DNA of 64,000 nt from a virus. Shown here piece after piece: positions 30,985-62,397 of this stretch. The notes beneath the pieces were generated by a model. The model was not told where the DNA came from, ran no database searches, and worked only from the letters and a program-made list of their open reading frames with translations. Every line of letters begins with the position of its first letter. Position 1 is the stretch's first letter. The translations under genes and the position numbers were made by a program. The stretch spans positions 64,001-128,000 of the IMG/VR virus record IMGVR_UViG_3300045738_002037, one strand, 5' to 3'.

Positions 30985-31668
30985 TTAAATTTCCTGAGCT
31001 ATAATGTCCCCTTCATATCCCCTATTAATACTTCTACCGGGACGTCCTTCTTTACCTGGCCTCTTAGCACCCTTCGAATAATATGTAGGCTTTAAGCCTT
31101 TTGATCTATGATAAAGTTCATTAGACAAAGCTCTTAAAAGTTTTGCGTAGTCATTGTCCTCGCCATACATCCATGAAGGTTTGTTTCCTAAAGCCTTTTT
31201 TTCTGGGTCCGACAATCTTTTAAGAAGGGCAACTGTCCAATCGTAAACAACTTCGTATTTCTCTTCCCAGTCTCGTTGTTTATCTGTAGTTTCGGGGTGA
31301 TGACCCCATTTACCTTGCGTATCAGCAGCAGACATCGTAGCGGGCACATCGTCTTGCGCATCAGCAGCAGACATCGCATCAGCTACTTCTTCAGAATCGC
31401 CGCTCGGTTCTGCCTCTGCCTCTTTATCCTTTTTACCCCAACCTAACTTTTTCTTTGCCCAGTCTAACGGCCCTTCATTGATCAATGCGTCAGTGTCTTC
31501 AGATAAAACACGAACCACACCTACCATATTATGCCATGCGACGGCCTCAGCAAGCTCGTCAATAGAATCAGAATATTTTACAAGAGTGCACTGAAGATGA
31601 TTAAACTTTGCGGGTTCATCGCTAATCATAGACGCGATAAGACTAGGATCAATCTTTCTGTTTTGCAT
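30985..31668 (-). CDS. Protein with ITEDP-like leader
   Basis: KIDPSLIASMISDEP; internal LINEGPLD. Confidence 0.7.
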   Translation of the reverse strand: MQNRKIDPSLIASMISDEPAKFNHLQCTLVKYSDSIDELAEAVAWHNMVGVVRVLSEDTDALINEGPLDWAKKKLGWGKKDKEAEAEPSGDSEEVADAMSAADAQDDVPATMSAADTQGKWGHHPETTDKQRDWEEKYEVVYDWTVALLKRLSDPEKKALGNKPSWMYGEDNDYAKLLRALSNELYHRSKGLKPTYYSKGAKRPGKEGRPGRSINRGYEGDIIAQEI

Positions 31669-31837: not shown

Positions 31838-32220
31838 TACGATGTAGACAAAGAAACAACTGGGTCAACAGCATGATTGGCGTACCCCGCAGAGCCAACC
31901 TGTAACAGCCCTGGCAATCGTAACCATTCTTGTTGACCATGATTCCAACCAGTTTGCTGGCCGGAACCACTTTCGAGTCGAGTTACAGACTCACCGGTTA
32001 AAGCTGCCTGAGCTTCTGCCGTTGTAACCCTGGCTTTATCATCTTTAACTACAGTAATGTTCGATGGATATGCTATTTTGCCTTCTTTGTTTGGCGGCAC
32101 TTGCACAAAACCATTAATAATTGGAAAATCCCTGTATATGTAAATATTAGCCATATTATTTTTCCCTATGTGTTTAAACATCTCCCCATGTGATTCATAA
32201 TTTATGTTTGGTCGGGCCAA
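31837..32220 (-). CDS. Hypothetical (putative virion) protein
   Basis: Directly downstream of the giant ORF. Confidence 0.6.
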   Translation of the reverse strand: MARPNINYESHGEMFKHIGKNNMANIYIYRDFPIINGFVQVPPNKEGKIAYPSNITVVKDDKARVTTAEAQAALTGESVTRLESGSGQQTGWNHGQQEWLRLPGLLQVGSAGYANHAVDPVVSLSTS

Positions 32221-35200
32221 CGCATACGATCTGGAAGTATTTCTCTAGATGTTATACGGTCCAAAATTAAGCCCTCTCTTCTACTAACATCCATAGACTT
32301 ATCGACCAAAATAATGCTCATGCCCGTGGCCACTACAGTATCATATGATGTAGCCCGTAACCTATTACCTACCCTTAAATAAGGAGCATACTTATTCACG
32401 TCATATCCTTTAGCCCTGGTTAATAATTTAACTGTTGCAAGTGACCCTTCATATGTTCTATTTGGATCAAACAAATCCCTTTCTAACTCCAACCGTACGC
32501 TTTTATTGGCGGTTAGAACTAACGCACAGGGTTCTACAATAACTTCTTCAAAATCTTTAGGATCAGGCACATATTTCTCGGGATAATCATAAGGCGGAGG
32601 CGGAACAAAATCCAAGCAAATTTCCGTCTGCAATGCCTCTGGTAAACAAGAACTCCCAAACCCAGACCCAGAAATATTACCTAATATAACACCTCCATCA
32701 GAAGCATTAGTGGATATATCTGGCTCTTCGGTAGTCGTGGATGAAGTAGTTGTCGTATGAGGAACAATCTCATCGCATATTTCTAATTCTAATTCTAAAG
32801 ACATAGACAACAATTTCGTGCCATTATATCTAGGCGCTGAGTCTTGCGCCTCCGGATTATCTTCACAATCCGGATAATTAGGACAAACAATACCGCCTAA
32901 AAGTAATGGACGAGCATTGCCATTATTGAAATCAATGGGCACAATCCCACCGTAAAAAACTGTTGAAATTTTATCACAAAGTCTTATTGACCTACCGGCA
33001 AGATCATTCGCATCATATGGGTCAATACCGTCAATAATTGGATGGCCACTTATGGGTCTAGCTTGCCACGTGCCAGCATTTGTAACTCTGTCTTGCGGGT
33101 CTGGCCGCATCTTGGTACCCAATGCTTCCAATATAGCACGTGCGCGGCTAGTGTCAGCAACCTCGTATTCATATACCACAACCACTCTGCGACCTTCACC
33201 TAACAGCATCCAATTTTTAATATTCTGAACATCATCTGGGCTAAGCACTGTAAGTGGATCTATCATGACAAGTTTGGCAAAAGCCAAATCTCTGCCATTC
33301 GAATCAGTGCCAGATATCGGGCCAACATGCCCGCCTTTAACATACAAACCTTGAGCAGCTGGAAATAAATTCCGTGACCCAAAAACCCGCAGCATATTAA
33401 TCGGATAATTTCTGTCATTTTCAGCAAATGATTTATACCCCACAACATTAACAACACTGGCGCTTGCTCCTACTGTTGGATTGCATTCCGGATAGAGATT
33501 GACCATAAATTGTTGGTTTTCTCGATTATTTGCAAGTCCCGAAAGCCCCGTTTGGCCGCCGCGACTAAAAGATTCATACATCAAAAAGGTAGTATCCGCT
33601 ATAAGAACCACTTCGCCTAAAATATCACCGCCGTCAGACAGCGGTATTGTTTCTACTGCCGCAATAATATTATTGGCCCCGCCAACAGATGCCCTACTCC
33701 AAGATAGCCTTCTAATTCCAACAAATAAACCATTCAACCTATCGCAGCTACCATCAAAAACTTCCGGGCAGACATCTATTTTGTTGTCGTGCGTCACGCG
33801 GACATCGCGATCTTCCGCCCATGTCGACGGCAATTGTCGCGGGTTAATATCAGAACTTCTTGATATAGTTCTTCTAAAATGTTCAGCCGCAAAGAAGCTG
33901 TGATTTGGGTTTCTACATGGCGATGGATACACTTTGCTAATTTCAAACTGATCTATTGCACACGGCTCCCCATATGGGCTATAATTATGTATATCCTTAT
34001 ACAATGTTATTTCTGTGCCTATGCCATCGGACGGCAACAAATCAAATTGTTGTTGTTGAATATTGTCAAATTTCAATGTTAATGTTGCTTTGTTAATAGC
34101 AATAACTTCATTCCAATTCACATCAACATGTGGTCCGGAATTATCTCCAGGATTCATGTCAACACCATTGAAACCAATTATCAATTCACGTTCTGCAAAA
34201 ATTTGGCCCCAACTTTGCACAAATTTACCATCATCAGGGTCAATAATATTTGGATAAAACGGACCGATGCCATTATTAACCACTGTGCCATTAGACAGTG
34301 TATTATATCCACTAAGCCCAGACCAGACTAATCCCGGAACTGTCATTCTTTCATCATTATTATGATCAGCAGCACTTCCAGTCGTGACAATTGGATTTAT
34401 TAAACAACTACCAGCGGGGCTGCATGTTTCAGTGGGCGAATCCCTAAAGAAATCAGCATGCGGTTTAAGAATTACATTGACTACCTCACACACGAAAGGT
34501 AAATAATCACCTTGTCCGCTAAACTCCGCAACTGGCGTTTCTAATACACCAATGCCGTTTCGTGAATTAGAATCAGGAGGCATTGTGGTAGTGGTAGTAG
34601 TAGTACCATCAACCGGGCCAACTAATTGAGCTTCAACCAAATCAATAAGTAAATGGTATCCGGGAACATACGGGCCATAAGGAGCATTTACGTGTGTCCC
34701 GCCTTCTCCGGTCCATGTAGAATTATAAACTAATTTAGTTCCATCTGACGAAACAATTAAATTCGGCTTAGCATAAAACGGATCCGCAAAACTATCGGTA
34801 GAAGGATCATATCCGTCCTTACCAACTATATGATTCCCATTAGGCCCAATCGGTACTGGATCTAATGTACTGGGATCATATATTCTGCTGACCAAATCAT
34901 AAGTTGGGTATCCGCCAACAGCATCTTCCCAGCCTGCTTTTGTTTCACTTCCTTGCTCGAGACCCAACAGTATTCCGCCAGTTAGGTTTAATAATTCATT
35001 TTTAATTCTATCATCAATGCTGTCGCCGCCACTATAAGCTACGCCATTAAATGATGACCTAGAAGTATTGGCACCAACATCATTTAGCAAAATAGAATAG
35101 TTATCAACTTTAAGCACCGCTGATGTTATTAAATCTAAATCCGTATCTTTATTTAACCAATCATTTAACCCGGTCGCCGCATAACTGTTTACAAAAGATG

Positions 35201-38200
35201 TTACCGGCGTTCCCGAAATTCCGTTCCAAGGAGGATCACTCCTACGAGCATCAATTGACACATCATAATCAAACCCACCATCTCCTGTCAGATGTGCATT
35301 TTTAATCAACTCATTATCATTTAAATAGATAGCAATCGTTTCAGCCGACTGGCTTCTTACATACAATAAACCTGTAAAATCTGTACCGTCATGGCTATAC
35401 TCGTTGCCGCCTTCTAAATTAGATAATCTATTTTTCCTATAAGCCTTCGTGAAAAGACCAGGAACAACTATATTTCCAAGCATGGCAAGTTGTGGTCCAG
35501 ACAAGCCTGCGCCAGAAACCGATGCCGCATGGAACTGCGGATTATAAATAATAGAATTAACACATATTGCGCTATTGGCCATTTGACCCTGCGCACGGGC
35601 TGACGTATTATCGAATGGCCCAGCGACTCCAATGTGGGCATACAAACACCTTTTAACCAATATATGATTTGACCCAGTTTCCGCGTCCGCTGCTGACATT
35701 AATAAACCCGGTGCCCCGGTCGGGGAACTCAATCCTTCAGAAATTATGCAATTCTGGAACGTTATATAACGACATGTTGAACCCGCAACGGTCGAAGGCT
35801 GTATTTTAGCACAAGCTTGAAGGCCCCATGACAGTGAACAATGGTCAATCAAAATATTTTCTATAGTAGGGTCTGGGCCATGAGCAATAACCCCCAACGC
35901 TACGCCTTGGCCGGTGGCTTCAATCCCAGTAGATGCTTTATCATGGTCCCCGTGCCTAATATAAATATTTCTAATTAAAACATTAGATGCTCTAACAAGC
36001 AGCGCAGTTCCAATTATCGTAATGCCGGGGTCTGGAGCAGTTTCACCGGCGACAACACAATTTGGAATGTCAATATTGATCGGCAGGATTACGTCCCTGC
36101 CCGCACTTTCTCCTTGTAATTCATCGGCATTCCTAAAATCAATGACGCCGCCAACTTCAAACACAATTATTCTTGGCCCTTGAGTCGTTAATGCTTCATA
36201 TAGCGATCCCGGCCCTGTTGGCGATAAGGTAGTCACTTTCAGAACATTAACATCGCTGACATCAGAAAATTCAGTTGAAATATTACCTTCGGGTTCAGGC
36301 AATACCACTGCTGGTTTACCACCTGACCCAGGAACCCCCTTGGTCCACGCATTCGTTCTAGTGTGCGTTAACCGCACCATGCCGACATTCGGATCTTCTA
36401 CATTGTAAGCAACAATTTCATCTCTATATAAACCACCAGTTATGTTAATAGTGTTGTCGGCATTATATTCTCTATCCGGGCCATAGGCTACAAACGCATA
36501 CGCGGCGTGAAGTGTGCTAAAATCTCTCCTACCGCCAGACCGCAGTCTAATCGGATTTTGCAAACCGGTTATATCGTAAATTTTAGCTTCGTATTGTTGA
36601 GACTCAAATTTAACACTCGTTGGATTAGACAATGCCGCCCAATTGTCGGGACAACTCCAAAAACCTTTCCTTGGATTTATTTCATAGCTAACGCGATCTT
36701 CAAATTCACTACTTTTAGTACAATTAAGAACAACTATACGACCAATTCTACCATTAGGATAAATATCATCTTTGCTATCATATAATGGTATAACACCGCC
36801 AGCAATATGGCGTAAAAGATCAGCATCTTGCAATTGGACATCAAAAGCTGGCATCACAACTTTAGCTAATGCCACACCCGTGGCTGTGGCCGGTGGGCAT
36901 ACTTGTAACGATAAGATCACGCTGCCATCGCCGCCAAAACCAAATCGCTGGATATGATCCCCTTTGGCTATATCGGCAGTCCTTTCATAGGCCATGTGGT
37001 TAGCAACATAAACATACTGATTGTCTAAATCTAAAATAATATCATTGGGTGATTGTGGGCCAAGGCTATAATGATAATTAAATAGAACCCCGCGAGGAAG
37101 ACGAGAACCTACCGTAGAGACATCAGACCCATCAAAGTCTAATTTTAATATTTTCGCAGTTCCATGTTCAGGGTACCGATTGTCGTTGGTTCGCGGCGGA
37201 ATTGTCTCTACGGTACTAAGATAAATATGTTGATTTTTAACATCCAGATCAATGCCTCTTACATTATCGATCCCAGTTAAACCATCACGCAATATGACCT
37301 TGCTGCTTCCACTAAGATTAGCACGGCGCAATCGGCCAGGATAAGGACCATCGGCATCAGCTGTGGCGTATTCAGTCCAATACATATGCCCATTTTCAAG
37401 ATCCAGAGCAAGCCTCGATGGGCGATATAGTCCCAAATGCTCAAGCCGACTGGCACCACCATCAACTAACGGATGACCACTAGATCGCTTTGCCCGCCAG
37501 TTGCTGCTCGCTCCTACGTGGACATTTTTCACCGTTATACCAACATCTAATTGTTGAACTAAATCATGGTATGCGCTTCCAGTCTTATGGTTGGCAAAGT
37601 CAGAGTGATGGCCGCCAAGTATTACCAATCTTTTATGGCCCAGTGCCAGCCAATCCTTAAGACCACTTATATGATCTGAAGATAACGGAGTATTACCCCA
37701 TGGGTCTATGAACAACAAATCAATGCTGGCCGGAATTGGCCAAGAGAACACTTTTGTTTGACTGCCCGTCATATTCGGGGCAAATGAGTGAGATTTTCTA
37801 TATGCCTCGTACCCAGGGTCACCATAAGAATAATCGAATACCCCAGGACCGTCTTTTACAGGGTCACGTGCAACAGGTGCACCAAAATATCTTAATATGG
37901 TTCCTTCATAAACATCATGCTTCCTAGTTTCTCCAGAAGCTGTATCGGCGGACGTGTAAGGAGGGTAGGGGACCCGGTCAACGACGCCTATGCTGTCATA
38001 TGCCGGAGCATCATGGGGACGACGCTCACAAACAGGATGTAAATTACGTAAGAATTTTTGGTTGTCAATGTCAAAACCAAAATATCCAGAATCTGCGATA
38101 TATTTATCAAGAGCATGATTATTATTAAAACTGCAAGGTGATTGTGACGGATAATAATATTGCCCATTCCGGATGCACCGGTTTTGGCAATCTCGCTTAT

Positions 38201-41200
38201 AAGTGCGGAAAGCGGCGGCGGTCATCTGCCTTTTGGCGATCGCGAGTGCCGCATCACTGCAGTAGCCTTTATATATGTGATAACGTAAGCGCGTATTGTA
38301 TTGACCGATCACTGGACTTCGGGGAGGGCGATATATGTCTTGAACCAACCATTGCCTATCAAGCATCACCACTACTTCAGACACTTTATTAACGGGCATC
38401 CAAGATTGTTTACCAACTAGTTGTGACCCAGTAGAATCCTGTATTCCATAAAACAATGATTCAACGGCAGCAAAATGGTAATTGGGTTCAGGCTTGAATG
38501 GAAAAAAGGTAGTTTTTGTCGCAGTATATGTGTATCCCAACGGAGAAAGTTGAGTACCCGTAGAAAATAGCGCCTTAGGACCGGACTGCACATTTTCAAC
38601 TAAAATATTAGTAAGATCGACAGAAGCTGGGAAAGTTAATTTTGCAGAACCCCGCGATCCCGTTATCAATCGCAATGCACCGCTATAAACAATGCTTTCT
38701 ATTGATGAGCCAAGATTATAAGTTTTAATATCTGATATGATGTTATCAGTTGGGGCCGACTTAGAAGTAAAATAATTCGGAACCTCTTCAAGCGTCAACG
38801 ACTTTGATGATTGTAAAGGAGGATCAGTAGTAGTTAAAAGCTGCTCGCCGGAACCATCTAAATTGGCTCTTCTCACTTCCCCGCGTGCAGCGGAGTCATC
38901 CACATGATCTTCAAGCCAATACATCTTACCACGGACAACATCTAATGCTATGCCGTGAGGATTTATGCTTCTTCCTCCCGGCGGCGTTATATCTTCCACA
39001 TTTGTGCCGTCCAAGTCAGCACGCATTATCTTGCCAACAGACGGAACAGCACCTGCGGGATTAGGAATTGAAGAATTCTGAACCGACGTAGCAATTGTCC
39101 AATACATCTTTTGATTGATGTTGTCAATTGCTATATCCGTGGCACCATCTTGATCGCTCACTAATATTTCATCGTTTGGAGCATCAAGCCACTTATTCTT
39201 GCCCAATTCTAATCGTTCCGGGGGCCAACGACGTATAGTGTTGGGTAATCCGTTATTATCCGAGTTAGAAACATAGTAAAGTTTCTGAACTGTAATGTCC
39301 GGAACAGCAGTGGTAGTGGTAGTGGTAGTAGTCCGAACCAATCCCGTACAATCATAAGAATCCGCTATTGTAACATCGGCCCAACTGTCAGAAGCTATCG
39401 CTAAAAATTGATCTGGAGCAGCAGTCGTTATGTCTAAAAATTTCTGGCCATATGCAAATGATAAAGCACTAATCTGATTTAACGGTATAACACCTCTGGT
39501 AGCACCTCTGTCTGTTAACAAATGCCCGCCTTGATCAGTGCCTCTGCCATCCAACAGCCCAGTGTCTAAATAAGAAAAATTATGGGGTCTAATTCCATAA
39601 TCTTTATAATCTGCCACAGCATTTCCGCTAGTGCCGGGTCTATAAATAGGACCCACAAGGTTATCAACTACAGTTACTCCAGCGACAACAGCAGCAACGA
39701 GCGGTATGAGTGTACGGCGAGGTTGACCCGGCTCGCAGTTGTAACCAAAGGCTTTACTCTCAGCGCGATTTAACCATATGTGGGGATTGCAGTATGTCCC
39801 TTCTTGAATAATTTCAACTCTCCCCGTGGGTTCCATGTAGCGTGCGGGACGCGAACCGAAAACTGTTCGCAATCTATCATATGCTGCCAAATAATGAATA
39901 ATTTGATTTGTACCAGCAGGCGGTGTATTACCCTTTGTGCCGCTCCACTCAACATCGAAAACTACAGTATACACATCTGGACGACCAGGCCATCCACGCT
40001 CAACGATCTTGCTGCCAACCGACCGGCGGTAGGTTTCTGGCTTTCCCCGCGCTTTCACGTTGCTAACAAATCGAACCACGCATGCGTCCGGGTTCTCTGC
40101 CCACACACGATTACCATCAGTTGTGCTCCTATGGTAATTCAGCCCAGCTGGCGAGTAATTGTTAAACTGGCGCTCCATGTATTTTTCAAACTTGCTACTG
40201 GAATAATTATTTTGCCTGTCGTTGCCAGTCAAACCGCCAGCGCTACGAAACACGCTAGCTGGTATTATAGCAGTGCGGTCTGGATGATTTTTGTAACGTT
40301 TAAAAATCCTAAATGACGCATTCGAAGTATTCGACCAGCTAACTGTAAATCGCTGTATCTCATTTTGACCTACTAGAACGTTCGGTTTGCGGTCAACGCT
40401 CGGTTTGCGGCTATCATCCGCAAATGGCCGGGACCAAGAAGGATTCGTTGCTTTATAAGCAAAATCACCAACATCAAACATCCGCCATATGTCTCTACTT
40501 TTACCCTGAACATCAACGCCAGCATATTTTACAAGAACGTGCCTGCCATCTTGTGAAAATTGTAAAGATTCTTCATCCGGGCCGACGAAATAATTTGTTC
40601 CATCAACAGTGACAATATCCTGTCTGACATGAATCGTGCCGGGGTCTGATACTGACGCAAAAAGCTCAGTAGGCCAAAGCCCAGTATCTTGGCCGCCAAT
40701 TCCTGTAATGAATGATGTAGCGAAAGCAGGATGGTTATAATAGCTCTCGTATATTTCTCTTTCATTTACTCCTGACAAATTAAACGCAGCAATAACTTCT
40801 TCACCATAATCACTTGTTGTAGATTCTAGAATTGAATTAAGATTAATAATATAAAGCCATAGATCGCCGTTATATGCGCCATGTGCTGTAACAGGACGAT
40901 TTGTAACATTGTCCGTCCATGTGTCATTGCTGCCAGTGCTGCCCCCAGCAGCATCGCATCGAAGCCCACCGACAGTATCGCACGACCCATATGGCGTTCC
41001 TATAACCGCCATATATGATCTTTCTACACTCTCGCCATTGTCAAGAACCACAGTTTTGTGAACAGGAACACTGCTCGCGCAATTTAAAATATAAAAAGGA
41101 AATCTTTTTCTCTTTTTAACTGGCGTTTCACCATCAGTGTCAAGTTTAATAACTTTTAATATTCTTCTGTCATTTGCATCTATCCCAACAGTAAGATTCT

Positions 41201-44200
41201 GACCATCAATATAGTCTTCTGAAATTCCCTGTATCCGTGAATGCCCATAATTATCAATAACACAGAAATCACTTGGCATCCATTTAATAGATTTAGGATC
41301 TAAATCATGGCCAGTCAGAAATCCATCTGAACCATCAACATCGTGCTGAAATGCAGCTTCAAGTGCTAAAAGCGGTTCATAATCAAACACTGTGCCGTCA
41401 ATGTCGCCGGAATACGCTCCCGGCGGAAGGTTATCTTCAAGAGATCTAACCAATAAACCTTTGGTGTTAGTGTTATCCTTGCCAGGTCCAGAGCCTTCTT
41501 CTATCTTTTTAACTGCTTTTTGCGGGCCAGCGCCATCATAAACAATAACCCCGCCCTCAGCAGTATCATCGGCAAGATAAGCTCGGAATTTTAAATCGTA
41601 TGGAAATATGCCGTCTTGCGTCGACGTTGATTCTTCTTTAAAGCTAATTTTTAATTCTGGGGACCATGGGCTATTTCCCATAGTGTTATAAACTATACTA
41701 GCTAAATCGCTAATATATTCATTGTCTGGATCATCAGCAAGATTAAACGGCGAAGTACCGTCAAAATGCTGATGTAACGACGGAGGCACGCCGTTAACGC
41801 TACCCCATTCCGTATCCGTCCGACTGGGTTGCCGTTTCCTTGCATCAGGGTTAGTATAATGGTCTTTGCCCCATCCCATACTATGGAACGATTTTGAATT
41901 ATAAAAACCTGGAGTAAGCAGAGCCTGGTTTCCTGCCGCTTGATCGATCCAAAATAAATTAAAATAATGTAAATTATTCGAATATTTTGATGCCAATTCT
42001 TTTATCAACGAAGTAACATTAACTTTCACACGTTTTAGGGCATACAGATGGCTCCCCTCGTATTCTTCTCCATCATAGCCATGATGATCTTCATCACTTT
42101 TTCCAATAACAAATTCAGTAGTACGTTCTCTTTTAGAAATTAATTTGCTGTCATCGCCGGGTTCAACTATAATTCTAAGCCTGGGCGCAAAATCTTCACC
42201 TTTAAGCGAGTGTCGAGAGCCTACAATTGTCCTAAACGCAGCATCTCCATTTAATGTTTCTTCATCTGGCACCCACATATATGACAGAATGGATTTGCCA
42301 TCGTCAAGTATTTCTTGAGTGACTTCAGTGACATCGCATTCAAAATTTCGAAATGCTCTTTCAGACCCTGTAAAATTAAAAGTCTTGTAAGCAGTTGTTC
42401 TATTTCTACTGAGAACCGAAACCTCATCGCTCAACGAAGATTCATAAGTGTCAACAAACGGATACGCTTTCACATTAGACCCACTACTCAATTCGCCATA
42501 TAATTTGCCATATACATTTTGGTCGCCGCCCTCTATGAATGTTTCATGGTCAGGATCGTAGTCATCTGCGCCATTTAATATTAAAACAGCACTTTTAATC
42601 TTTTTGCCGACCAAATCATCAGAGATTTCTGAACCATGAAACATAAAACCAACTGCTCGCGTTACTAACTGGCCAGAGAAAGCCGTTGGAATTGGGATCC
42701 CGGAAGCACTAGCGCCTCCATGGGAAGTTACATCAGGATATTTTCCAAATCGCAGTTGCCCATTATCGCCTGGAAAATCCCCAACTTCAATCAACCCATT
42801 GCCAACGCCGTCCATGCGCTGCTCGGCGTCCTGTTTACCAGTGGCTGACTGGTCCAATATTGGATCGACAAAACGAACTTTAAACTCATAGAGATAAGCG
42901 TTCTCTTCCGACCATTCATCAGGTTCATTTGAATCTTCTGCGTACCATTTGCCGTCAAAATCAACCTGCCCAGCATTATTAAGATGAGTATCAATTGAAC
43001 CTTGCGTACTATTTTCGGCCAATCGATCAGGCGGCATATACATTATTAATTCTGCAGATTCAATCTCCCTACCGCCGATATCAAATTCGCTATGGAATCT
43101 AAGACCGACATGTCTGTGTCCACCCATTACACGGGCAACTGAGCCTGATAGCTGTGGGTCCCTAGCCAAAGCATGTTCGTCGTAACCTTTATTGCCATGC
43201 CCAAATTCTATTGCATCGTTTCTTACAGTAACGATTCCTCGCTGCTGGAAGCCCATGGCAATGGGGATATCGTGCTCGTTCGCTTGCCAATAATTTTGTG
43301 TATAGTAAATAATTTCTTCGGCTGCGTCCTCGGCACGATTCACTTTACATCTAGAGATTGTGTTATTATAACCCTTGCCGGGCAGATGCTCAAAACCATG
43401 ATCGTCAAATGACGCATCTTTAGGAAGCAACACTTCAATATCAGCAACAATTTCTGCCGCGTTAGGATAATACGTATTAACTGTTCGCCAAATTCTATCG
43501 CCATGGTTTATGATCGCAGAATAACGACGGCCCGAAAGTATGTCGGTCGGATCATATTTGCCTAAAATTTCTGGCCATTCCGATGTACCATTGCCGACAT
43601 TTCCATATGGCGAATTAGCGGTGGCAATACAAAACGGCGATATGGTATTTGTTTGTTCCTGAGTGCGAGCAAGCAAAGAAGTTTTTAAGGTATTCGCGTC
43701 TGGAAATAAAAAATTTCTCGTCGAATGTAAAATAACTGAAACTGTTTGCCCCGCAGCAACAGGAACACCCTTGGGATATAAAGTATTGATTAGATCTAAT
43801 GAAACCCATTGGCCATCGCCGGTCACATTCACGTCGATATGGAAAGAAGCTAAACTCGCCCCAGCCGCAGATAGATCATCGCCGTCGATTATCTCCACAG
43901 ACATTGTGCCCGACAGCGATTGCTCGCACGTGGGATCCCATCCAGCGGACCTCGACGTCCCACGCTGCCATAACGAACCTACGTCGGACGCGTGATCAGT
44001 AGAAATACGTATTGCGTCTGCAAAAACCGGAACTCTCATCTCCGTTTCAGGAAAGACCACCAATCCTTCATGCTGGTACATTATTACTTCAATTGACTGA
44101 CCTTCTTCTACAGTAAGGATACCGTCCGGATTTGGGGTAGAAGCTAAAATTTCCCATGTAGCACTTGTTATCAAAACAAGACCAGGTGGTGGCACACTCC

Positions 44201-47200
44201 ACGGATTGGCGGTTTCATTTAGAGCGGGGTCGTACTCGGATACGGTCTTACCAGATGGCGCTCGAGCTTTAAATGAATTGGGACTGACACTTTGATCGAC
44301 GTATGCATCATAACGACTGCCCACCGGAACATCGTCAGCACTTAGCAATTGATAAGTGAATTTCACGTTGTCATGGCCAGGGACGCTGCCAAGCTGGTTT
44401 CCGTAGCCGCTGCCGCCTCCAGGCATCACAATCGACGGCCATGTGGCAGATATTTGATAATCACCAGCTGGCAGATCACGAAATTTCCAAGTCGCTGTTA
44501 ATAGGTCTGGCCCATGTATCGATGGCATATCCTCTGAAGAAAAAGCAATCTCATAGGACCCACCCCAGACTGAGTTTGGATTGCCGCCTTTTCTCCAATC
44601 GACGTCGTCATGCATAATATAGCTCTGATAGCCCCCGCCGTGGGGCATCCTGAGAAATTCTGTCTTCTTTCCTGCGATCCGGGAAGTATAATTCTCGTCG
44701 TAATTGTCAATTATATATGTGTTAACTGTAGGAAGGCGACGCGGGTCAGGGCTTTTTCCATACAAATAAACTTCAAACTTTGAAAAATATCCACTATTGT
44801 CAAATCTTATTGTCTGACCTATTCTATCCGCGAACCGGCCCGGTAGTGTCGGTTGTGCTACGGAGCTAAAAATAGGAGAATCATTTTGAAGATATGGAGG
44901 ATATATTGTCGCTAATGTAGTGTCAGTGTTAAGTTCACTATTCCAAATAATTTGCGGGCTGGACATAGCCCCATAAGGATGCGTTTGTTCCTCAATAAGC
45001 TGCTTTTGATCTATCACAGAAGTTGAAATATTATCTAATAAGGTTAATTCAAGCGGTATGTGCTCACATAATAACAATGTGCCGTTCGAATTAAATGAAC
45101 TATAAACCGACGTCTTGTGGGTATTATATTGTTTAAACGCTAATTTAGCTTTTGGTATATCGTTATCATCATGAACTCTTACTCCAGTCCCAGAATTCTT
45201 GCTGATTCTTTTAACTGGAACTTTAGTAACAGGGTCTAAACCGGATTCTAAAAAATCACCTGAATATTTGACATCCGGCAGATCCATACTAGGAATCGTA
45301 CCAACATAGTCATATACTGCGCTTTTTAATTGTTTTGGAACAGTCCACTTAGAAGCAGGGCCACCACTAGGAGGGTCATCTGAATCTCCAGACAACTGAC
45401 CGATAAATAGATCACCGCTTGGCCCAAGTGGAATTGGCAACAATGTTTCAGAATCATACGTTCTTGACGTTCCACTATATGACGGATAAGTCACAAGCAC
45501 GTCAGACGTCGCTGACAAAGTTTGACCATTTTGATCACGTCTATATCCAACTTCAAATCGTTTTACATATCCTGTTCCATTTACTATATCATTTTTAATG
45601 CGGTCATCATCCGTATCGCCACTAGAATAAGTTTTAGACGATGTATTAAACGACGATCTGGACGAATTCATTCCGACATTATCTAAAATGGTTCTATAAT
45701 CATTAGACTTCATCGCCGTAGAACTGATTAAATCTAAATCACTTTTAACAACCCAATTTGCCGCATCATCATAAGATGTTACAAACGATGCGCCAGTTAT
45801 ATTAAATGGTCCAGACCCATTGCCGTCATCCCAAATATGAGCATCAAAACTTACATCTGCGTCATATCCGCCACTAGAATCCGGTACAGGAGAACCGGGG
45901 CGCGGAACAAGATAATCATTTGAAATTAATTCATTGTCTTCTAAATAAACCGCCACTCCATCTTTAGCGCCAGCCCCATCTTTCTTATACACAAAAAATA
46001 GCCCAGTAAAATTCGTGTATGGCGGTTGTCCTTGTGTGGAACCAGTAAGAGCAGTCGGCGGTTCATTTTTAGCCCATGGTCTGGTGTTTCGACCAGGGAC
46101 AACAATATTGCCTAACACAGAAACCTTGGGGCCTTCCGTGCCAGCGCCAATCACTTGGAATACTTGTTGCTGAGGATTATAAATGATGGAATTAGTACAT
46201 ATAGCACTATTTTCTTTACCAACATAACCATTGGCAATATTAAAAGGATCTCTTTTATTAAAATGGGCAAATACACATTTTTTAATTTGAACTTTGTTTA
46301 CACCAGAACCCATCGATAAACCAGCAGATTGACCTTGCGCGCCCTCTAAACCTTCCGCAATTATAGAATTTTGAATTGTTACATAGCTAACTTGCCCTTC
46401 TATATTGGCACTATAGTCCTTTGGTTCTATATCAACTATTTCATCAACACCCCACGACAACGAACAATGATCAATCAAAATATTTTTAAGAACATTGCCC
46501 CAAGGCTTATTGTGCCTATACTTAATTTGCAAAGCATCAGAAGATTCACCATTGGTCTTAGTTGACCGATGCCAGCCGGATCTTATAGCAATATGTCTTA
46601 ATAAAACATGGGGCGCTTCAATTGCTATAGACGCGCCGATTACAGTTATTCCAGGTTCAGGTGCAGTCTCGCCAGCAACAACGCAATTTGGTTCCGTAAC
46701 GACCATGTTTAACATACGCTTATAAACGTTAGGCTGAGGATTAATCCTAGTGCTTTTTCTAAGATCAATAATACCGCCTACTTCAAACACAATAATTCTT
46801 TCACCAGGAGTCGATAAGGCATGGTGAAGAGTTATGTCGCCTTCTACATAATCCGGATCAGTATCATCTGCCGCTAGAGAATTAACTTTTATGACTTTAA
46901 CACTATCAGAATCTGAATTATCTGGCGAAAATTCACCGCTAATAACTAGTTCTGCGTCTGAAAAGCGGATTTCATTATCACTAATATTGCCGCCACTGTA
47001 TCCAAATAATAATATATGATGGTCTATTGTGTCCGGCGCACTACCGCTAAATATTACTTTCCCAGGAGCAATAGCAGTCATCAATACGTTAAAAAATTCA
47101 AATTCACTAGGCCCAACTGGCGATAAACCATCCACACCGCCAGCGTGCTCAATGCTTCCTTCTTTAAGATTGCCCGCTTGACCAAAGCCGTCATACGGAC

Positions 47201-48077
47201 TTACATGCCCAATGGTGCCTTTATCTTCTGTTAAATCCTTATTATAAGTGATATTTAAATAGGCAGCGAATATCCCAGATGAATAAGCAGGATTTTGGTC
47301 TTCTCGTAAATCTTGAACAAACGCGCGAATATAATATTCTTCGCCCACGTTTATATTAGATATAGGATTACCACTTGCGTCAGTAGCGGCAATCCTAATC
47401 TGCACTAATTCATGGCCAGACAACGGCGACACCACATTGCCAACAATAGGTACAATGTCTGGCATTGACATTGAAGACGGCACTTCAGGAACAGCGACTG
47501 CTTCAACAACACCAGGGACCAATGGCTGATCCTCTGGAACAAGCTGCACCAACCTCTTTACATTATTATAATATTCTGTGCCAATAATAGAAACTAAATT
47601 GCCGGATAACACAGTCCCAAATGTACCGCCACTACTGTGATCCCATGCAAACAATTCCCCGCCGGGAGTTATATAATAATATTGCCTACCTATATTTCGA
47701 CTATCATAGAACGGCGCTCCAGTAGAATTATATTCTACGAACCAATTGCCGGTTATCCATTTTTCATTTTCGCCACCAAAATTAAGATAATGATTAGCAC
47801 TACCACTTAAAGCAAATTCGAATACAGAAGCATCAAAATCACCCAACACTAATACAGAATTCGCTTGCTTTCCTTGCGGCGAATCAGCTGGAAAAGCTTC
47901 GATCTCTTTTTGCGTAACACTGATTAATTCGACAAACGTGGACTGGCCTATTTCATCATTAAAACCAACATTGTCCCACACAGAATTGTCGGAACTTGGT
48001 TGCGCATTATTGCCGCTCTGACCAACGGCTTTCCGCACTGCATCAAATCCATCAGACATAAATATACCGTCTTTCAA
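32202..48077 (-). CDS. Giant (5,291 aa) mosaic adhesin/polysaccharide depolymerase; probable ATG at 48059
   Basis: Two pectate-lyase-like beta-helices (RIIVFEVGG, VAGETAP, IDHCSLSWG), cohesin-like VQDLR..GIFAAYL, golvesin-like ATWKF..YQISATWP..ADAIRI, YWTD-type repeats, poly-Thr linkers. Confidence 0.85.
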   Translation of the reverse strand: MKDGIFMSDGFDAVRKAVGQSGNNAQPSSDNSVWDNVGFNDEIGQSTFVELISVTQKEIEAFPADSPQGKQANSVLVLGDFDASVFEFALSGSANHYLNFGGENEKWITGNWFVEYNSTGAPFYDSRNIGRQYYYITPGGELFAWDHSSGGTFGTVLSGNLVSIIGTEYYNNVKRLVQLVPEDQPLVPGVVEAVAVPEVPSSMSMPDIVPIVGNVVSPLSGHELVQIRIAATDASGNPISNINVGEEYYIRAFVQDLREDQNPAYSSGIFAAYLNITYNKDLTEDKGTIGHVSPYDGFGQAGNLKEGSIEHAGGVDGLSPVGPSEFEFFNVLMTAIAPGKVIFSGSAPDTIDHHILLFGYSGGNISDNEIRFSDAELVISGEFSPDNSDSDSVKVIKVNSLAADDTDPDYVEGDITLHHALSTPGERIIVFEVGGIIDLRKSTRINPQPNVYKRMLNMVVTEPNCVVAGETAPEPGITVIGASIAIEAPHVLLRHIAIRSGWHRSTKTNGESSDALQIKYRHNKPWGNVLKNILIDHCSLSWGVDEIVDIEPKDYSANIEGQVSYVTIQNSIIAEGLEGAQGQSAGLSMGSGVNKVQIKKCVFAHFNKRDPFNIANGYVGKENSAICTNSIIYNPQQQVFQVIGAGTEGPKVSVLGNIVVPGRNTRPWAKNEPPTALTGSTQGQPPYTNFTGLFFVYKKDGAGAKDGVAVYLEDNELISNDYLVPRPGSPVPDSSGGYDADVSFDAHIWDDGNGSGPFNITGASFVTSYDDAANWVVKSDLDLISSTAMKSNDYRTILDNVGMNSSRSSFNTSSKTYSSGDTDDDRIKNDIVNGTGYVKRFEVGYRRDQNGQTLSATSDVLVTYPSYSGTSRTYDSETLLPIPLGPSGDLFIGQLSGDSDDPPSGGPASKWTVPKQLKSAVYDYVGTIPSMDLPDVKYSGDFLESGLDPVTKVPVKRISKNSGTGVRVHDDNDIPKAKLAFKQYNTHKTSVYSSFNSNGTLLLCEHIPLELTLLDNISTSVIDQKQLIEEQTHPYGAMSSPQIIWNSELNTDTTLATIYPPYLQNDSPIFSSVAQPTLPGRFADRIGQTIRFDNSGYFSKFEVYLYGKSPDPRRLPTVNTYIIDNYDENYTSRIAGKKTEFLRMPHGGGYQSYIMHDDVDWRKGGNPNSVWGGSYEIAFSSEDMPSIHGPDLLTATWKFRDLPAGDYQISATWPSIVMPGGGSGYGNQLGSVPGHDNVKFTYQLLSADDVPVGSRYDAYVDQSVSPNSFKARAPSGKTVSEYDPALNETANPWSVPPPGLVLITSATWEILASTPNPDGILTVEEGQSIEVIMYQHEGLVVFPETEMRVPVFADAIRISTDHASDVGSLWQRGTSRSAGWDPTCEQSLSGTMSVEIIDGDDLSAAGASLASFHIDVNVTGDGQWVSLDLINTLYPKGVPVAAGQTVSVILHSTRNFLFPDANTLKTSLLARTQEQTNTISPFCIATANSPYGNVGNGTSEWPEILGKYDPTDILSGRRYSAIINHGDRIWRTVNTYYPNAAEIVADIEVLLPKDASFDDHGFEHLPGKGYNNTISRCKVNRAEDAAEEIIYYTQNYWQANEHDIPIAMGFQQRGIVTVRNDAIEFGHGNKGYDEHALARDPQLSGSVARVMGGHRHVGLRFHSEFDIGGREIESAELIMYMPPDRLAENSTQGSIDTHLNNAGQVDFDGKWYAEDSNEPDEWSEENAYLYEFKVRFVDPILDQSATGKQDAEQRMDGVGNGLIEVGDFPGDNGQLRFGKYPDVTSHGGASASGIPIPTAFSGQLVTRAVGFMFHGSEISDDLVGKKIKSAVLILNGADDYDPDHETFIEGGDQNVYGKLYGELSSGSNVKAYPFVDTYESSLSDEVSVLSRNRTTAYKTFNFTGSERAFRNFECDVTEVTQEILDDGKSILSYMWVPDEETLNGDAAFRTIVGSRHSLKGEDFAPRLRIIVEPGDDSKLISKRERTTEFVIGKSDEDHHGYDGEEYEGSHLYALKRVKVNVTSLIKELASKYSNNLHYFNLFWIDQAAGNQALLTPGFYNSKSFHSMGWGKDHYTNPDARKRQPSRTDTEWGSVNGVPPSLHQHFDGTSPFNLADDPDNEYISDLASIVYNTMGNSPWSPELKISFKEESTSTQDGIFPYDLKFRAYLADDTAEGGVIVYDGAGPQKAVKKIEEGSGPGKDNTNTKGLLVRSLEDNLPPGAYSGDIDGTVFDYEPLLALEAAFQHDVDGSDGFLTGHDLDPKSIKWMPSDFCVIDNYGHSRIQGISEDYIDGQNLTVGIDANDRRILKVIKLDTDGETPVKKRKRFPFYILNCASSVPVHKTVVLDNGESVERSYMAVIGTPYGSCDTVGGLRCDAAGGSTGSNDTWTDNVTNRPVTAHGAYNGDLWLYIINLNSILESTTSDYGEEVIAAFNLSGVNEREIYESYYNHPAFATSFITGIGGQDTGLWPTELFASVSDPGTIHVRQDIVTVDGTNYFVGPDEESLQFSQDGRHVLVKYAGVDVQGKSRDIWRMFDVGDFAYKATNPSWSRPFADDSRKPSVDRKPNVLVGQNEIQRFTVSWSNTSNASFRIFKRYKNHPDRTAIIPASVFRSAGGLTGNDRQNNYSSSKFEKYMERQFNNYSPAGLNYHRSTTDGNRVWAENPDACVVRFVSNVKARGKPETYRRSVGSKIVERGWPGRPDVYTVVFDVEWSGTKGNTPPAGTNQIIHYLAAYDRLRTVFGSRPARYMEPTGRVEIIQEGTYCNPHIWLNRAESKAFGYNCEPGQPRRTLIPLVAAVVAGVTVVDNLVGPIYRPGTSGNAVADYKDYGIRPHNFSYLDTGLLDGRGTDQGGHLLTDRGATRGVIPLNQISALSFAYGQKFLDITTAAPDQFLAIASDSWADVTIADSYDCTGLVRTTTTTTTTAVPDITVQKLYYVSNSDNNGLPNTIRRWPPERLELGKNKWLDAPNDEILVSDQDGATDIAIDNINQKMYWTIATSVQNSSIPNPAGAVPSVGKIMRADLDGTNVEDITPPGGRSINPHGIALDVVRGKMYWLEDHVDDSAARGEVRRANLDGSGEQLLTTTDPPLQSSKSLTLEEVPNYFTSKSAPTDNIISDIKTYNLGSSIESIVYSGALRLITGSRGSAKLTFPASVDLTNILVENVQSGPKALFSTGTQLSPLGYTYTATKTTFFPFKPEPNYHFAAVESLFYGIQDSTGSQLVGKQSWMPVNKVSEVVVMLDRQWLVQDIYRPPRSPVIGQYNTRLRYHIYKGYCSDAALAIAKRQMTAAAFRTYKRDCQNRCIRNGQYYYPSQSPCSFNNNHALDKYIADSGYFGFDIDNQKFLRNLHPVCERRPHDAPAYDSIGVVDRVPYPPYTSADTASGETRKHDVYEGTILRYFGAPVARDPVKDGPGVFDYSYGDPGYEAYRKSHSFAPNMTGSQTKVFSWPIPASIDLLFIDPWGNTPLSSDHISGLKDWLALGHKRLVILGGHHSDFANHKTGSAYHDLVQQLDVGITVKNVHVGASSNWRAKRSSGHPLVDGGASRLEHLGLYRPSRLALDLENGHMYWTEYATADADGPYPGRLRRANLSGSSKVILRDGLTGIDNVRGIDLDVKNQHIYLSTVETIPPRTNDNRYPEHGTAKILKLDFDGSDVSTVGSRLPRGVLFNYHYSLGPQSPNDIILDLDNQYVYVANHMAYERTADIAKGDHIQRFGFGGDGSVILSLQVCPPATATGVALAKVVMPAFDVQLQDADLLRHIAGGVIPLYDSKDDIYPNGRIGRIVVLNCTKSSEFEDRVSYEINPRKGFWSCPDNWAALSNPTSVKFESQQYEAKIYDITGLQNPIRLRSGGRRDFSTLHAAYAFVAYGPDREYNADNTINITGGLYRDEIVAYNVEDPNVGMVRLTHTRTNAWTKGVPGSGGKPAVVLPEPEGNISTEFSDVSDVNVLKVTTLSPTGPGSLYEALTTQGPRIIVFEVGGVIDFRNADELQGESAGRDVILPINIDIPNCVVAGETAPDPGITIIGTALLVRASNVLIRNIYIRHGDHDKASTGIEATGQGVALGVIAHGPDPTIENILIDHCSLSWGLQACAKIQPSTVAGSTCRYITFQNCIISEGLSSPTGAPGLLMSAADAETGSNHILVKRCLYAHIGVAGPFDNTSARAQGQMANSAICVNSIIYNPQFHAASVSGAGLSGPQLAMLGNIVVPGLFTKAYRKNRLSNLEGGNEYSHDGTDFTGLLYVRSQSAETIAIYLNDNELIKNAHLTGDGGFDYDVSIDARRSDPPWNGISGTPVTSFVNSYAATGLNDWLNKDTDLDLITSAVLKVDNYSILLNDVGANTSRSSFNGVAYSGGDSIDDRIKNELLNLTGGILLGLEQGSETKAGWEDAVGGYPTYDLVSRIYDPSTLDPVPIGPNGNHIVGKDGYDPSTDSFADPFYAKPNLIVSSDGTKLVYNSTWTGEGGTHVNAPYGPYVPGYHLLIDLVEAQLVGPVDGTTTTTTTMPPDSNSRNGIGVLETPVAEFSGQGDYLPFVCEVVNVILKPHADFFRDSPTETCSPAGSCLINPIVTTGSAADHNNDERMTVPGLVWSGLSGYNTLSNGTVVNNGIGPFYPNIIDPDDGKFVQSWGQIFAERELIIGFNGVDMNPGDNSGPHVDVNWNEVIAINKATLTLKFDNIQQQQFDLLPSDGIGTEITLYKDIHNYSPYGEPCAIDQFEISKVYPSPCRNPNHSFFAAEHFRRTISRSSDINPRQLPSTWAEDRDVRVTHDNKIDVCPEVFDGSCDRLNGLFVGIRRLSWSRASVGGANNIIAAVETIPLSDGGDILGEVVLIADTTFLMYESFSRGGQTGLSGLANNRENQQFMVNLYPECNPTVGASASVVNVVGYKSFAENDRNYPINMLRVFGSRNLFPAAQGLYVKGGHVGPISGTDSNGRDLAFAKLVMIDPLTVLSPDDVQNIKNWMLLGEGRRVVVVYEYEVADTSRARAILEALGTKMRPDPQDRVTNAGTWQARPISGHPIIDGIDPYDANDLAGRSIRLCDKISTVFYGGIVPIDFNNGNARPLLLGGIVCPNYPDCEDNPEAQDSAPRYNGTKLLSMSLELELEICDEIVPHTTTTSSTTTEEPDISTNASDGGVILGNISGSGFGSSCLPEALQTEICLDFVPPPPYDYPEKYVPDPKDFEEVIVEPCALVLTANKSVRLELERDLFDPNRTYEGSLATVKLLTRAKGYDVNKYAPYLRVGNRLRATSYDTVVATGMSIILVDKSMDVSRREGLILDRITSREILPDRMRWPDQT

Positions 48078-60917: not shown

Positions 60918-61325
60918 ATGCCATATATAAAAAACGAAGATAGAAAAGAATTAAACGATAAAATTTACGCATTAGTCGATTCTATAAATGATACCTCTGA
61001 AGACAATATTGAAGGTGTTCTCAATTACGTAATAACAACCTTACTGACAAGCTCTGTACGGCCAAATGATAAAAAATGGAGATATAAAATCTTTAACAGG
61101 GCTATCGGGATCCTCGAATGCGCAAAACTAGAATTTTATCGTCGATTAATTAGTCAATATGAAGAAAAATGCATCGATGACAATGGTGATGTCAAAGCAT
61201 ACAAAGAATGCTTGAAAGATATTAAATCACAAAAAAGAGAAACAAATGTGCCAGAAGAAGGCGGGATATGGGTAGCATACGGCGAATTTGGATACCCAAA
61301 ATTCCAAAATAACCATGAAAATTGA
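60918..61325 (+). CDS. Conserved phage protein (DUF6899-like)
   Basis: MPYIK, LNYVIT, GILECAKLEFYRR, NGDV; family name recalled, not searched. Confidence 0.7.
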   Translation: MPYIKNEDRKELNDKIYALVDSINDTSEDNIEGVLNYVITTLLTSSVRPNDKKWRYKIFNRAIGILECAKLEFYRRLISQYEEKCIDDNGDVKAYKECLKDIKSQKRETNVPEEGGIWVAYGEFGYPKFQNNHEN

Positions 61326-61695
61326 CCCTAAACAAATCGCTAAGATGATAACGGAAGACCCGGATGAGGTTAATCCGTTAGACAATATAATAGACACATT
61401 TGAAAAAGGTCTAGGCGAGCACGACAGGGACGTTGGCTCTGATGAAATGCATGCTTTCGGTGAAATTATAACAGATCATCTTAATTATAATCATCATTCT
61501 CCAGCAGACTTCAGAGATTTTGAATTTATGACAATACGCGGAGGCCCAGATGACGCAATGTGGAGTGTCGGCAATCAAAATTTTAGCTATGGCCACCCCG
61601 AGGAAACATTTGCAGAATTTATGGGAGTTGTTTATTACGACGATGACCGCATATGGAAATATGAATGGCATGATCGATCCCAAACAAATCGCTAG
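61315..61695 (+). CDS. ITEDP-leader protein 1 (start revised to 61315)
   Basis: MKIDPKQIAKMITEDPDEVNPLD plus acidic module. Confidence 0.75.
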   Translation: MKIDPKQIAKMITEDPDEVNPLDNIIDTFEKGLGEHDRDVGSDEMHAFGEIITDHLNYNHHSPADFRDFEFMTIRGGPDDAMWSVGNQNFSYGHPEETFAEFMGVVYYDDDRIWKYEWHDRSQTNR

Positions 61696-62041
61696 AATGA
61701 TAACGGAAGATCCGGATGAGATCAATCCGTTAGATGATATAGAAGATACGTACTTTCCCTCCCAAGATAATCCAGACGAACATGCCCCGATGAATGTTGC
61801 CTTTGATGAAATGCACGCCTTTGGTGAAATTATAGCAGATTATCTTAATTATAACCATCATTCTCCAGCAGACTTCACAGATTTTGAAGATATGACAATA
61901 CACGGAGGCCCAGATGACGCAATGTGGAGTGTTGATAATCAAAATTTTAGCTATGGCCACCCCGTGTATCAAGAATTTATGGGAGCTGTTTATTACGACG
62001 ATGACCGCATATGGAAATATGAATGGCAAGACCACGCATGA
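61670..62041 (+). CDS. ITEDP-leader protein 2 (start revised to 61670)
   Basis: MIDPKQIARMITEDPDEINPLD plus near-identical acidic module. Confidence 0.75.
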   Translation: MIDPKQIARMITEDPDEINPLDDIEDTYFPSQDNPDEHAPMNVAFDEMHAFGEIIADYLNYNHHSPADFTDFEDMTIHGGPDDAMWSVDNQNFSYGHPVYQEFMGAVYYDDDRIWKYEWQDHA

Positions 62042-62397
62042 AAATTGATCCCAAACAAATAGCCAAGATGATAACGGAAGATCCGAATGAGATCAATCCG
62101 TTAGATGATATAGAAGATATGTACTTTCCCTCCCAGCAAGGAATTCGTTTCGTGCTTTGTCCCGAATGCGGTAGGGAAATCACAGACGAAGACGACATGG
62201 CATATTGTGATGCTGGCCATTTTCCGGACCCTGTCACAGGCACATATTGCCATAATAAAATTTGCAAAATTTCCTGTTTAGATGTTCACAAGACAGGAAT
62301 GTCGCCATCTGGGTGGTTTACAGATGTTGACATGGGTGAATGGTACTGCCCCGATCATGCTGCAGAAGCTCAACAAGAAAGATTCGACCGGGGTTAA
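62038..62397 (+). CDS. ITEDP-leader protein 3 with Cys/His zinc-finger cargo (start revised to 62038)
   Basis: MKIDPKQIAKMITEDPNEINPLD; CPEC, CxxxC, WYCPDH; ATGA overlap. Confidence 0.75.
   Translation: MKIDPKQIAKMITEDPNEINPLDDIEDMYFPSQQGIRFVLCPECGREITDEDDMAYCDAGHFPDPVTGTYCHNKICKISCLDVHKTGMSPSGWFTDVDMGEWYCPDHAAEAQQERFDRG

Follow-up and report, generated by a model that had tools for sequence, protein, structure and literature searches.

Why do three small, overlapping genes of one virus, two with paralogous and one with unrelated products, begin with nearly the same peptide? The question is raised by a 64,000-nucleotide stretch of DNA (positions 64,001 to 128,000 of IMG/VR virus record IMGVR_UViG_3300045738_002037), called the window below, in which the three genes, A, B and C, lie close to the 3′ end. 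In a first-pass annotation of this DNA, the shared leader (hereafter, the tag) was compared with the capsid-targeting sequence (CTS) of the internal proteins (IPs) of phage T4. It was proposed that the tag loads diverse cargo into the phage head and that the repeated DNA allows the cargo to be exchanged. From the sequence comparisons described here, the tag probably does resemble the T4 CTS in serving head loading and being cleaved, and it is carried on cassettes that recombine.

Translation from internal ATGs gave the N-terminus M(K)IDPKQIA(K/R)MITEDP(D/N)E(V/I)NPLD for all three genes. The real starts were hidden because the mechanically made open reading frame (ORF) calls are longer, beginning at 61288, 61550 and 62023. 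The short starts are inferred from relatives, where Met1 opens the tag in 20 of 23 distinct metagenome copies, and gene B has an alternative ATG at 61661. With these starts, the DUF6899 gene and A overlap by 11 nucleotides (nt), A and B by 26 nt, and B and C by 4 nt (ATGA). No terminator-like sites were found between A, B and C, and the three are therefore probably a single transcription unit. At the DNA level, the leader forms a threefold repeat of 92 nt; with the B copy as reference, the identities are 72% and 92%. A and B also have cargo DNA in common, with 91% identity over 169 nt and 97% over 60 nt, and their proteins are 76% identical. The mature part of C, with 7 Cys plus His residues, is zinc-finger-like and not related to A/B. 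The arrangement originally described, that is, overlapping genes with starts concealed in longer ORFs, a near-identical leader conserved as DNA, a duplicate module in two genes and unrelated cargo in the third, is thus confirmed by translation and alignment.

A repeat of this kind could be produced by faulty assembly, or the ORFs might not be genes. Logan contigs in fact end at the leader repeats, where short-read assemblers break, and the leaders stand out by a 10- to 17-fold peak in depth. However, Logan contigs from two runs of different studies cover the array with 0 differences. Contigs of run X1, which is possibly the source sample, span from cargo A to leader B and from cargo B to leader C, and contigs of run X2 span from DUF6899 to leader A and from cargo B through leader C to cargo C. 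Because contigs of two studies bridge the cargo-leader junctions without a mismatch, an assembly origin of the repeat is excluded. Back-translated MITEDP[DN]E has three matches in the window and 0 in each of 100 dinucleotide-preserving shuffles. Arrays of two to five tagged genes, up to five within 1.7 kb, are also found on independent metagenome contigs. C has an ortholog elsewhere (P0004; 65% identity over the whole query by BLASTP, 73% by MAFFT), as the A/B cargo has homologues (P0018 and P0035), and the peptide is under purifying selection. With these points against it, the explanation by an artefact or by spurious ORFs is hardly credible.

To trace the family in this genome, all six frames were scanned for the motif, and a profile derived from the leaders was used. 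The single virus record to which the window belongs (156,696 bp, 38.5% G+C) contains 16 full copies of the tag, ten of a MITEDP class and six of a FITEDP class, the latter with the sequence MNKNTIxHLAAFITEDPxEF. The MITEDP copies are located at 57.5 kb of the genome (one), in A-B-C (three), at 131.3-134.0 kb (five, one of them in frame within a 552-amino-acid (aa) ORF) and at 154.6 kb (one). Five FITEDP members stand in tandem at genome 0.1-2.3 kb, immediately downstream of the capsid gene, and the sixth is in the window (Table 1). One degenerate and one internal partial copy exist besides the 16. Two full tags, at residues 1 and ~406, lie in frame in the 552-aa ORF (L005:6301-7959, minus strand; genome 132301-133959), which also has a partial tag (LLSEDPDEVNPLDNIEDEY) and several EYxxLEDADEF modules. 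Either the ORF encodes a polyprotein or it joins two genes by read-through.

In metagenomes, MITEDP[DN]E gave 46 matches at 28 loci, 43 of which are true leaders and three chance matches (L011, L013 and L021). Against 1.84 billion representative proteins, a profile of 31 positions made from 28 tags found 64 clusters with the threshold at E<=1e-3 and 24 with the threshold at E<=1e-10; at least six of the 64 contain this genome's own proteins. In 60 of the 64 clusters, the start of the tag is at one of the first 10 residues, and of the other four, two come from genes of this genome that were called too long. The leader is therefore not a peculiarity of the three genes from which it was first described. 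Neither the locus by blastn nor the 29-aa tag by tblastn matched any of 50,697 phage records, and seven pattern matches in 185,579 prokaryote species genomes were all due to chance. The MITEDPDE pattern had 0 matches in IMG/VR, and ITEDPDE had 37 loci, of which one is genuine (L054, more distant) and the others are without tag context. The strings ITEDPDE, FITEDP and IAKMITE were not found in the papers searched, and MITEDP corresponded, among the matches listed, to run-together English words.

The tag resembles the T4 CTS in its design rather than in its residues. In an alignment of 28 tags of both classes, I12, E14, D15 and P16 are invariant and A9, T13 and E18 are at least 90% conserved. 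I12 and E14, present in 28 of 28, place a gp21-type (I/L)-x-E motif at the end of the tag, as a motif match, with the Glu at residue 13-15. (L/I)-x-E is the consensus of cleavage in T4. The T4 CTS, MKTYQEFIAE, is the first 10 residues of IPIII (PMC8442874). Its residues 4 and 7 are described as serving targeting and residues 8 and 10 as serving processing, which is blocked by Asp at position 10 (PMC9026906). The propeptides of T4 head proteins are given as 10-20 residues long, with gp21 cutting after Glu (PMC5694885). When the marine tags are aligned at their Glu, I or L falls at P7, M or F at P4, I at P3 and E at P1, which is the register of the T4 CTS, and the Glu (E14/E15) lies within the 10-20-residue range. 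Beyond this hydrophobic register and I-x-E, no residue-level similarity of the tag to MKTYQEFIAE was found. E-D-P is followed by an acidic/aromatic module, with the lineage variants NPLDNIEDEY, VPSDHFDDFEDEY, HETMNESHDDYLD and EYxGLEDADEF. A 186-aa protein (L005:3381-3941, minus strand; genome 129381-129941) has no N-terminal tag and contains an internal NPLDNIEDTF. Because it sits inside an untagged protein, the acidic module is a separate, reusable element.

The head machinery of this phage is of the T4 type. The major capsid protein matches Gp23 (PF07068, E=7e-81), and a prohead protease matches Peptidase_S77 (PF03420, E=9.5e-17) and the structure of T4 gp21 (PDB 5JBL, E=1e-7). The portal, the large terminase (TerL), sheath, tube and baseplate proteins are also encoded in the record. 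A 241-aa ORF between the protease and capsid genes occupies the place expected for a gp22-like scaffold gene; it has no family match and is a candidate only. In the phage collection, no record exceeds 39% identity to the capsid protein, the top match being an uncultured 595-kb phage. The reads carrying the locus come from seawater and marine metagenomes, and no RNA run was listed among the sequencing runs with the locus.

Candidate processing sites are seen in several of these proteins (a slash marks the proposed cut). The capsid protein has five [IL]xE in residues 1-81 and one in residues 82-529, and ILE/DQ at residue 81 directly precedes the conserved core that aligns with mature T4 gp23. 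T4 gp23 itself loses 65 residues (PDB chains of 456 versus 521 residues). Among the longer relatives, P0062 has [IL]-x-E before the acidic module at 3 of 3 junctions (ITE/DV, LSE/DV and IRE/DT), and so has a 344-aa ORF in L079 (IYE/Q, IEE/S and IAE/S), so that these relatives look like polyproteins with [IL]-x-E junctions. The distant members P0056, P0061 and P0069 have a tag copy at each end, which recalls T4 Alt, reported to be processed at both termini (PMC9026906). The portal contains IITE/DD at 10 residues from its C-terminus and the protease itself IAE/T at residue 24; both are possible further sites of the same protease.

If the cargo stays inside the prohead together with an [IL]xE protease, this motif would be expected to be avoided in the cargo. 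In the cargo of the family, with the linkers removed, 77 [IL]xE were counted against a shuffle expectation of 86.3 (ratio 0.89; 11% of shuffles were as low). The ratio is 1.21 in the other proteins of the genome, and the control motifs [IL]xD and Ex[IL] gave ratios of 1.25-1.28 in the cargo. The depletion is in the predicted direction, and it is modest. Apart from the tag site, B and C have no [IL]xE and A has one, in its linker.

From these observations, the following pathway can be proposed. The N-terminal helix of ~14 residues, x-(I/V)DPKQIA(K/R)MITE, would act like the CTS of T4 internal proteins and dock the new protein on the scaffolding core of the assembling prohead. The gp21-type Peptidase_S77 protease would then cut the tag off after the invariant I-x-E. 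The cargo would keep the acidic/aromatic linker (DPDEVNPLDNIEDEY or a lineage variant), stay in the head and enter the host with the DNA. We only infer these steps, namely docking, cleavage, retention in the virion, injection and action of the cargo.

Table 1. Positions of the tagged genes of the window, their tags and other features of the record
Feature	Position	Strand	Remarks
Gene A	window 61315-61695	+	126 aa; tag, acidic linker, A/B-type cargo of ~85 aa
Gene B	window 61670-62041	+	123 aa; C-like tag and linker, A-paralogous cargo
Gene C	window 62038-62397	+	119 aa; tag, linker, Cys/His-rich (zinc-finger-like) cargo
Tag of A (MKIDPKQIAKMITE)	window 61315-61356	+	proposed cut after E14
Tag of B (MIDPKQIARMITE)	window 61670-61708	+	translation, pattern match
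Tag of C (MKIDPKQIAKMITE)	window 62038-62079	+	translation, pattern match
DUF6899 gene, first of the plus-strand gene string	window 60918-61325	+	PF21840, E=2.5e-23
FITEDP-class member (MNKKIDKKTIDQLAMFITEDPDKF...EYKDLEDADEF), 226 aa	window 30274-30954	-	motif and profile match
Degenerate member (MQNRKIDPSLIASMISDEP...), 227 aa	window 30985-31668	-	weak profile match, iE=0.083
Peptidase_S77 prohead protease	genome 5834-6571 (L001)	-	PF03420
Portal	L001:9971-11923	-	part of the T4-type head machinery

A number of findings weigh against a head-loading tag, and some of them favour another explanation, in which the tag is a docking or regulatory peptide unrelated to the capsid, which could direct many small acidic or zinc-finger proteins to a single hub of host or phage, such as the polymerase, the replisome or a protease adaptor, or is a degron, with I-x-E being coincidental. 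First, the cargo is acidic. The isoelectric point (pI) of the mature part is 4.05-5.16 in 16 of 17 scored entries and 6.94 in one, the genome median being 5.98 (the pI of A is 4.47), whereas the T4 IPs are described as highly basic (PMC8442874). Acidic, often zinc-finger-like cargo suits early host-takeover proteins better than it suits T4 IPs. Second, the neighbours of the array in the window are recombination and helicase genes (SbcC, helicase), not head genes. Third, about 15 residues after the proposed cut are strongly conserved and recur inside proteins without a preceding [IL]xE. This acidic/aromatic linker resembles a binding motif, found also away from N-termini, and it is not accounted for by a simple T4-style CTS. 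Other adverse points concern the head-loading tag itself. The helix predicted by AlphaFold2 (AF2) at residues 5-12 has a predicted local distance difference test (pLDDT) score <50. A promoter search at the array gave only generic sigma-70-like matches, with no recognisable late promoter, and the GGAG-type ribosome site of head genes is absent from the array genes. TATAAATA-like strings lie upstream of a few tagged members, with no consistent motif among them. This genome's cargo alone, with 24 [IL]xE against 24.8 expected, is not depleted against shuffles, and the depletion is seen only against the genome background and in the relatives, which are mutually non-independent. Finally, a more distant relative, G001 (147 kb, 41% complete), showed only one tag and no S77 match, but control genomes also gave none, so that this search says nothing either way.

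Thus, the comparison with the T4 CTS made in the first-pass annotation stands in part: the protease, the capsid type, I-x-E and the N-terminal position point to it, and the acidic cargo and the conserved residues after the cut do not fit. However, a docking peptide or degron leaves more than one feature unexplained, that is, the strictly N-terminal placement of the tag, the fact that I and E are precisely the residues that never vary, the [IL]xE at polyprotein junctions, the FITEDP array beside the capsid gene and the modest depletion of [IL]xE in the cargo. We consider it rather unlikely, and the head-loading tag is preferred.

The cargo is diverse in size and sequence. Its length is 44-538 residues, mostly >80, and it is domain-like or multi-domain. 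Single-linkage clustering by BLASTP divided the 101 distinct cargo sequences into 41 clusters; the largest (37) was probably chained via residual linker modules. At least four Cys are present in the mature part of 8 of the 17 scored entries of this genome. Searches of A, B and C against Pfam, PHROGs and NCBIfam found nothing above cut-off, and Pfam on 66 relatives gave a single borderline match, zf-MYND in P0067 (23.1 versus a cut-off of 22.7), the rest being below cut-off. The AF2 models (pLDDT 53.7 for A and 42.9 for C) are too poor for a fold search, and the ESM Atlas yielded sub-threshold leads only, LIM or B-box-like for C and nothing usable for A. A tagged relative of 237 aa, P0036, contains a zinc-finger-like segment and a weak HD/HD_4 (RelA/SpoT-hydrolase-like) match at E ~0.008, below cut-off, which is a hint that some cargo may be enzymatic. 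As a speculation, the acidity of the cargo is compatible with DNA mimicry.

A conserved leader followed by very variable, often Cys-rich sequence is also known from peptide natural products; prochlorosin-like families combine a conserved leader with hypervariable Cys-rich cores. The tag could then be a leader of the ribosomally synthesised and post-translationally modified peptide (RiPP) type, or a secretion-type leader. However, the size and domain-like nature of the cargo do not suit this explanation, no modifying-enzyme or transporter family was found beside the arrays, and the leader has no hydrophobic signal segment. Such a role is very improbable.

The DNA of the leader contains a core, ATGATAACGGAAGA(Y)CCG, that is conserved beyond the needs of the peptide. 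As ACGGAAGA(Y)CCG, it is located at window 61351-61362, 61703-61714 and 62074-62085 and in all other leaders. The Thr codon is ACG in 15 of 15 own copies, compared with a genome usage of 17%, and the single Ser variant has TCG. In 26 distinct metagenome leaders, found with a search pattern that permitted ATH ACN GAR, the codons ATA, ACG and GAA are present in 26 of 26 and CCG in 23 of 26, and CGGAAGA is invariant in 28 of 28. For this reason, conservation mainly at the nucleic-acid level has to be considered, with a recombination or homing site or an mRNA element as the selected unit and the peptide as a by-product. The fixed ACG and CGGAAGA, together with mosaic breakpoints that lie around the core, are in its favour. 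However, adjacent fixed residues vary synonymously (GAT 15/GAC 11; GCC 17/GCT 8; CCC 13/CCT 11), and the peptide itself is therefore under selection. Both classes retain I-T-E-D-P despite different flanks. RNAalifold detected no structure on the leaders (2 pairs, -0.59 kcal/mol, no covariation), and no Rfam family had an E below 0.06. The 8-mer ACGGAAGA occurs 20 times in the genome, 15 times in leaders and 5 times elsewhere, the latter being about chance, and the distant copy L054 uses ACC and CCA. A nucleic-acid element as the primary function is therefore improbable. As the origin of the core, we tend to favour recurrent gene conversion, in which crossovers are resolved where the copies are most alike, over a nucleotide-level function. 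The tRNA supply was also considered as a cause of the ACG/CCG choice and rejected, the only phage tRNA being Arg(TCT). The gene of this tRNA (L006:10558-10631; genome 154558-154631, plus strand) lies directly upstream of the tagged gene at 154648.

Since many genes start with nearly the same DNA, recombination probably takes place within the tags of the proposed head-loading cassettes, and cargo genes are therefore duplicated, swapped and replaced from locus to locus and from strain to strain. Traces of such events are seen in the leaders of this genome. The linker of B is 98% identical to that of C and 55% to that of A, and its helix part is nearest to the 132.3-kb copy (94%). B is thus a chimera, in which a C-type leader is joined to A-type cargo. 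In A, the nearest relative of the helix part is the 57.5-kb copy (94%) and that of the linker is the 132.3-kb copy (81%), and the 57.5-kb and 131.7-kb copies are 98% identical in the helix part and 38% in the linker.

The array content also differs between strains. In L009, L026 and L032, the flanks of the locus are syntenic, with amino-acid identities of 89% for SbcC, 81% for DUF6899 and 98% for the helicase, and A-B-C is replaced by one different tagged gene (101 aa, CxxC-type cargo) and a 448-aa gene. At the 154.6-kb locus, the flanks are 87-92% identical in L023 and L033 and the tagged gene matches in the leader only, so that the cargo is different there. A third case is the FITEDP gene at window 30274-30954, to which a locus in L031 is syntenic. 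P0013, a protein from the database search with a start identical to the L031 copy, has cargo 57% identical (E=1e-73) behind a tag of the MITEDP class. The same cargo thus stands behind either tag class, and the two classes are interchangeable on one cargo. These cargo differences at syntenic loci, together with the mosaic leaders, support the proposal of the first-pass annotation that the DNA repeat allows cargo swapping.

Two other observations concern the surroundings of the tagged genes. A 355-aa protein of no known family (L004:5489-6556, minus strand) has homologues (36-51% identity) that adjoin tagged genes in L009, L019, L026, L028, L030 and L032. In L009 the homologue occupies the place of B/C, and this protein may perhaps travel with the cassettes. 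The longest ORF of the genome, with 5,291 aa, covers window 32202-48077 (minus strand); an L031 homologue of its C-terminal end is 60% identical.

A wider picture can be offered tentatively. Marine T4-like giant phages may possibly run an unusually large injected-effector system, in which a two-part address, a cleavable CTS-like helix and a retained acidic/aromatic module, was captured by dozens of unrelated ORFs, some of them polyproteins cut in the head. The invariant nucleotide core may be the crossover point at which payloads are shuffled between loci and strains. A second signal with no T4 counterpart, used for retention, ejection or DNA mimicry, could reside in the retained acidic module. 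If the tag indeed acts in head loading, this phage group would deliver into its host, with its DNA, a large, rapidly exchangeable set of acidic and zinc-finger proteins, far beyond the few of T4. With a single short motif, candidates for first-minute host-takeover or counter-defence proteins of uncultured ocean phages could then be catalogued, and phage engineering would gain a second, sequence-unrelated packaging tag to compare with the T4 CTS. Even if the tag does otherwise, this family, with 16 members and an invariant peptide at the N-terminus, ranks among the largest paralogue sets of the genome.

How far, then, does this family differ from known systems? The principle of a head-loading tag is already known, since reviews of T4 state it: the T4 internal proteins are described as a diverse set with only the conserved CTS in common, and related phages as carrying other CTS-bearing proteins (PMC3012670, PMC9026906). 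The T4 CTS, on IPI, IPII, IPIII and Alt, is also a short N-terminal tag, within 10-20 residues and ending in I-x-E, with the same hydrophobic register (P7, P4, P3 and P1), and T4 likewise has a shell of the Gp23 type and an S77 protease. There too, one tag is found on unrelated proteins, at loci that vary between related phages (PMC3012670, PMC9026906, PMC8442874). In contrast, the marine tag has no detectable homology to MKTYQEFIAE, a second conserved acidic/aromatic module follows its cut site, it exists in two interchangeable classes, and it is present in 16 copies per genome versus a handful in T4. The marine cargo is acidic and often zinc-finger-like where that of T4 is basic, polyproteins with internal junctions occur, and the marine family is known from sequence.

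The giant phages phiKZ, 201phi2-1 and SPN3US, with their propeptide-bearing inner-body and ejection proteins, are described as having many head-internal proteins cut after Glu by a gp21-related protease, with paralogues of identical N-termini and divergent remainder, and with several cleavage sites per protein (PMC5694885, PMC9026906). However, their sites are A/S/G-x-E and their propeptides are often >100 residues long, whereas here the site is I/L-x-E and the tag has 14-15 residues, as in T4. The Dar proteins of P1 are reported to be packaged in the head and injected to counter defence, and their incorporation is linked to the morphogenesis of the head (PMC9024508, PMC12810830). P1 differs in that it is not known to have a common short tag family or a cassette array. 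A constant address with exchangeable payload and recombination at the address is also the logic of polymorphic toxins and of encapsulin cargo-loading peptides. Their machines and motifs are different, however, and encapsulin tags are usually C-terminal. What differs here from the known systems is a sequence-unrelated tag in an uncultured marine lineage, with a retained acidic module, interchangeable classes, a 16-gene scale, polyproteins and an invariant nucleotide core.

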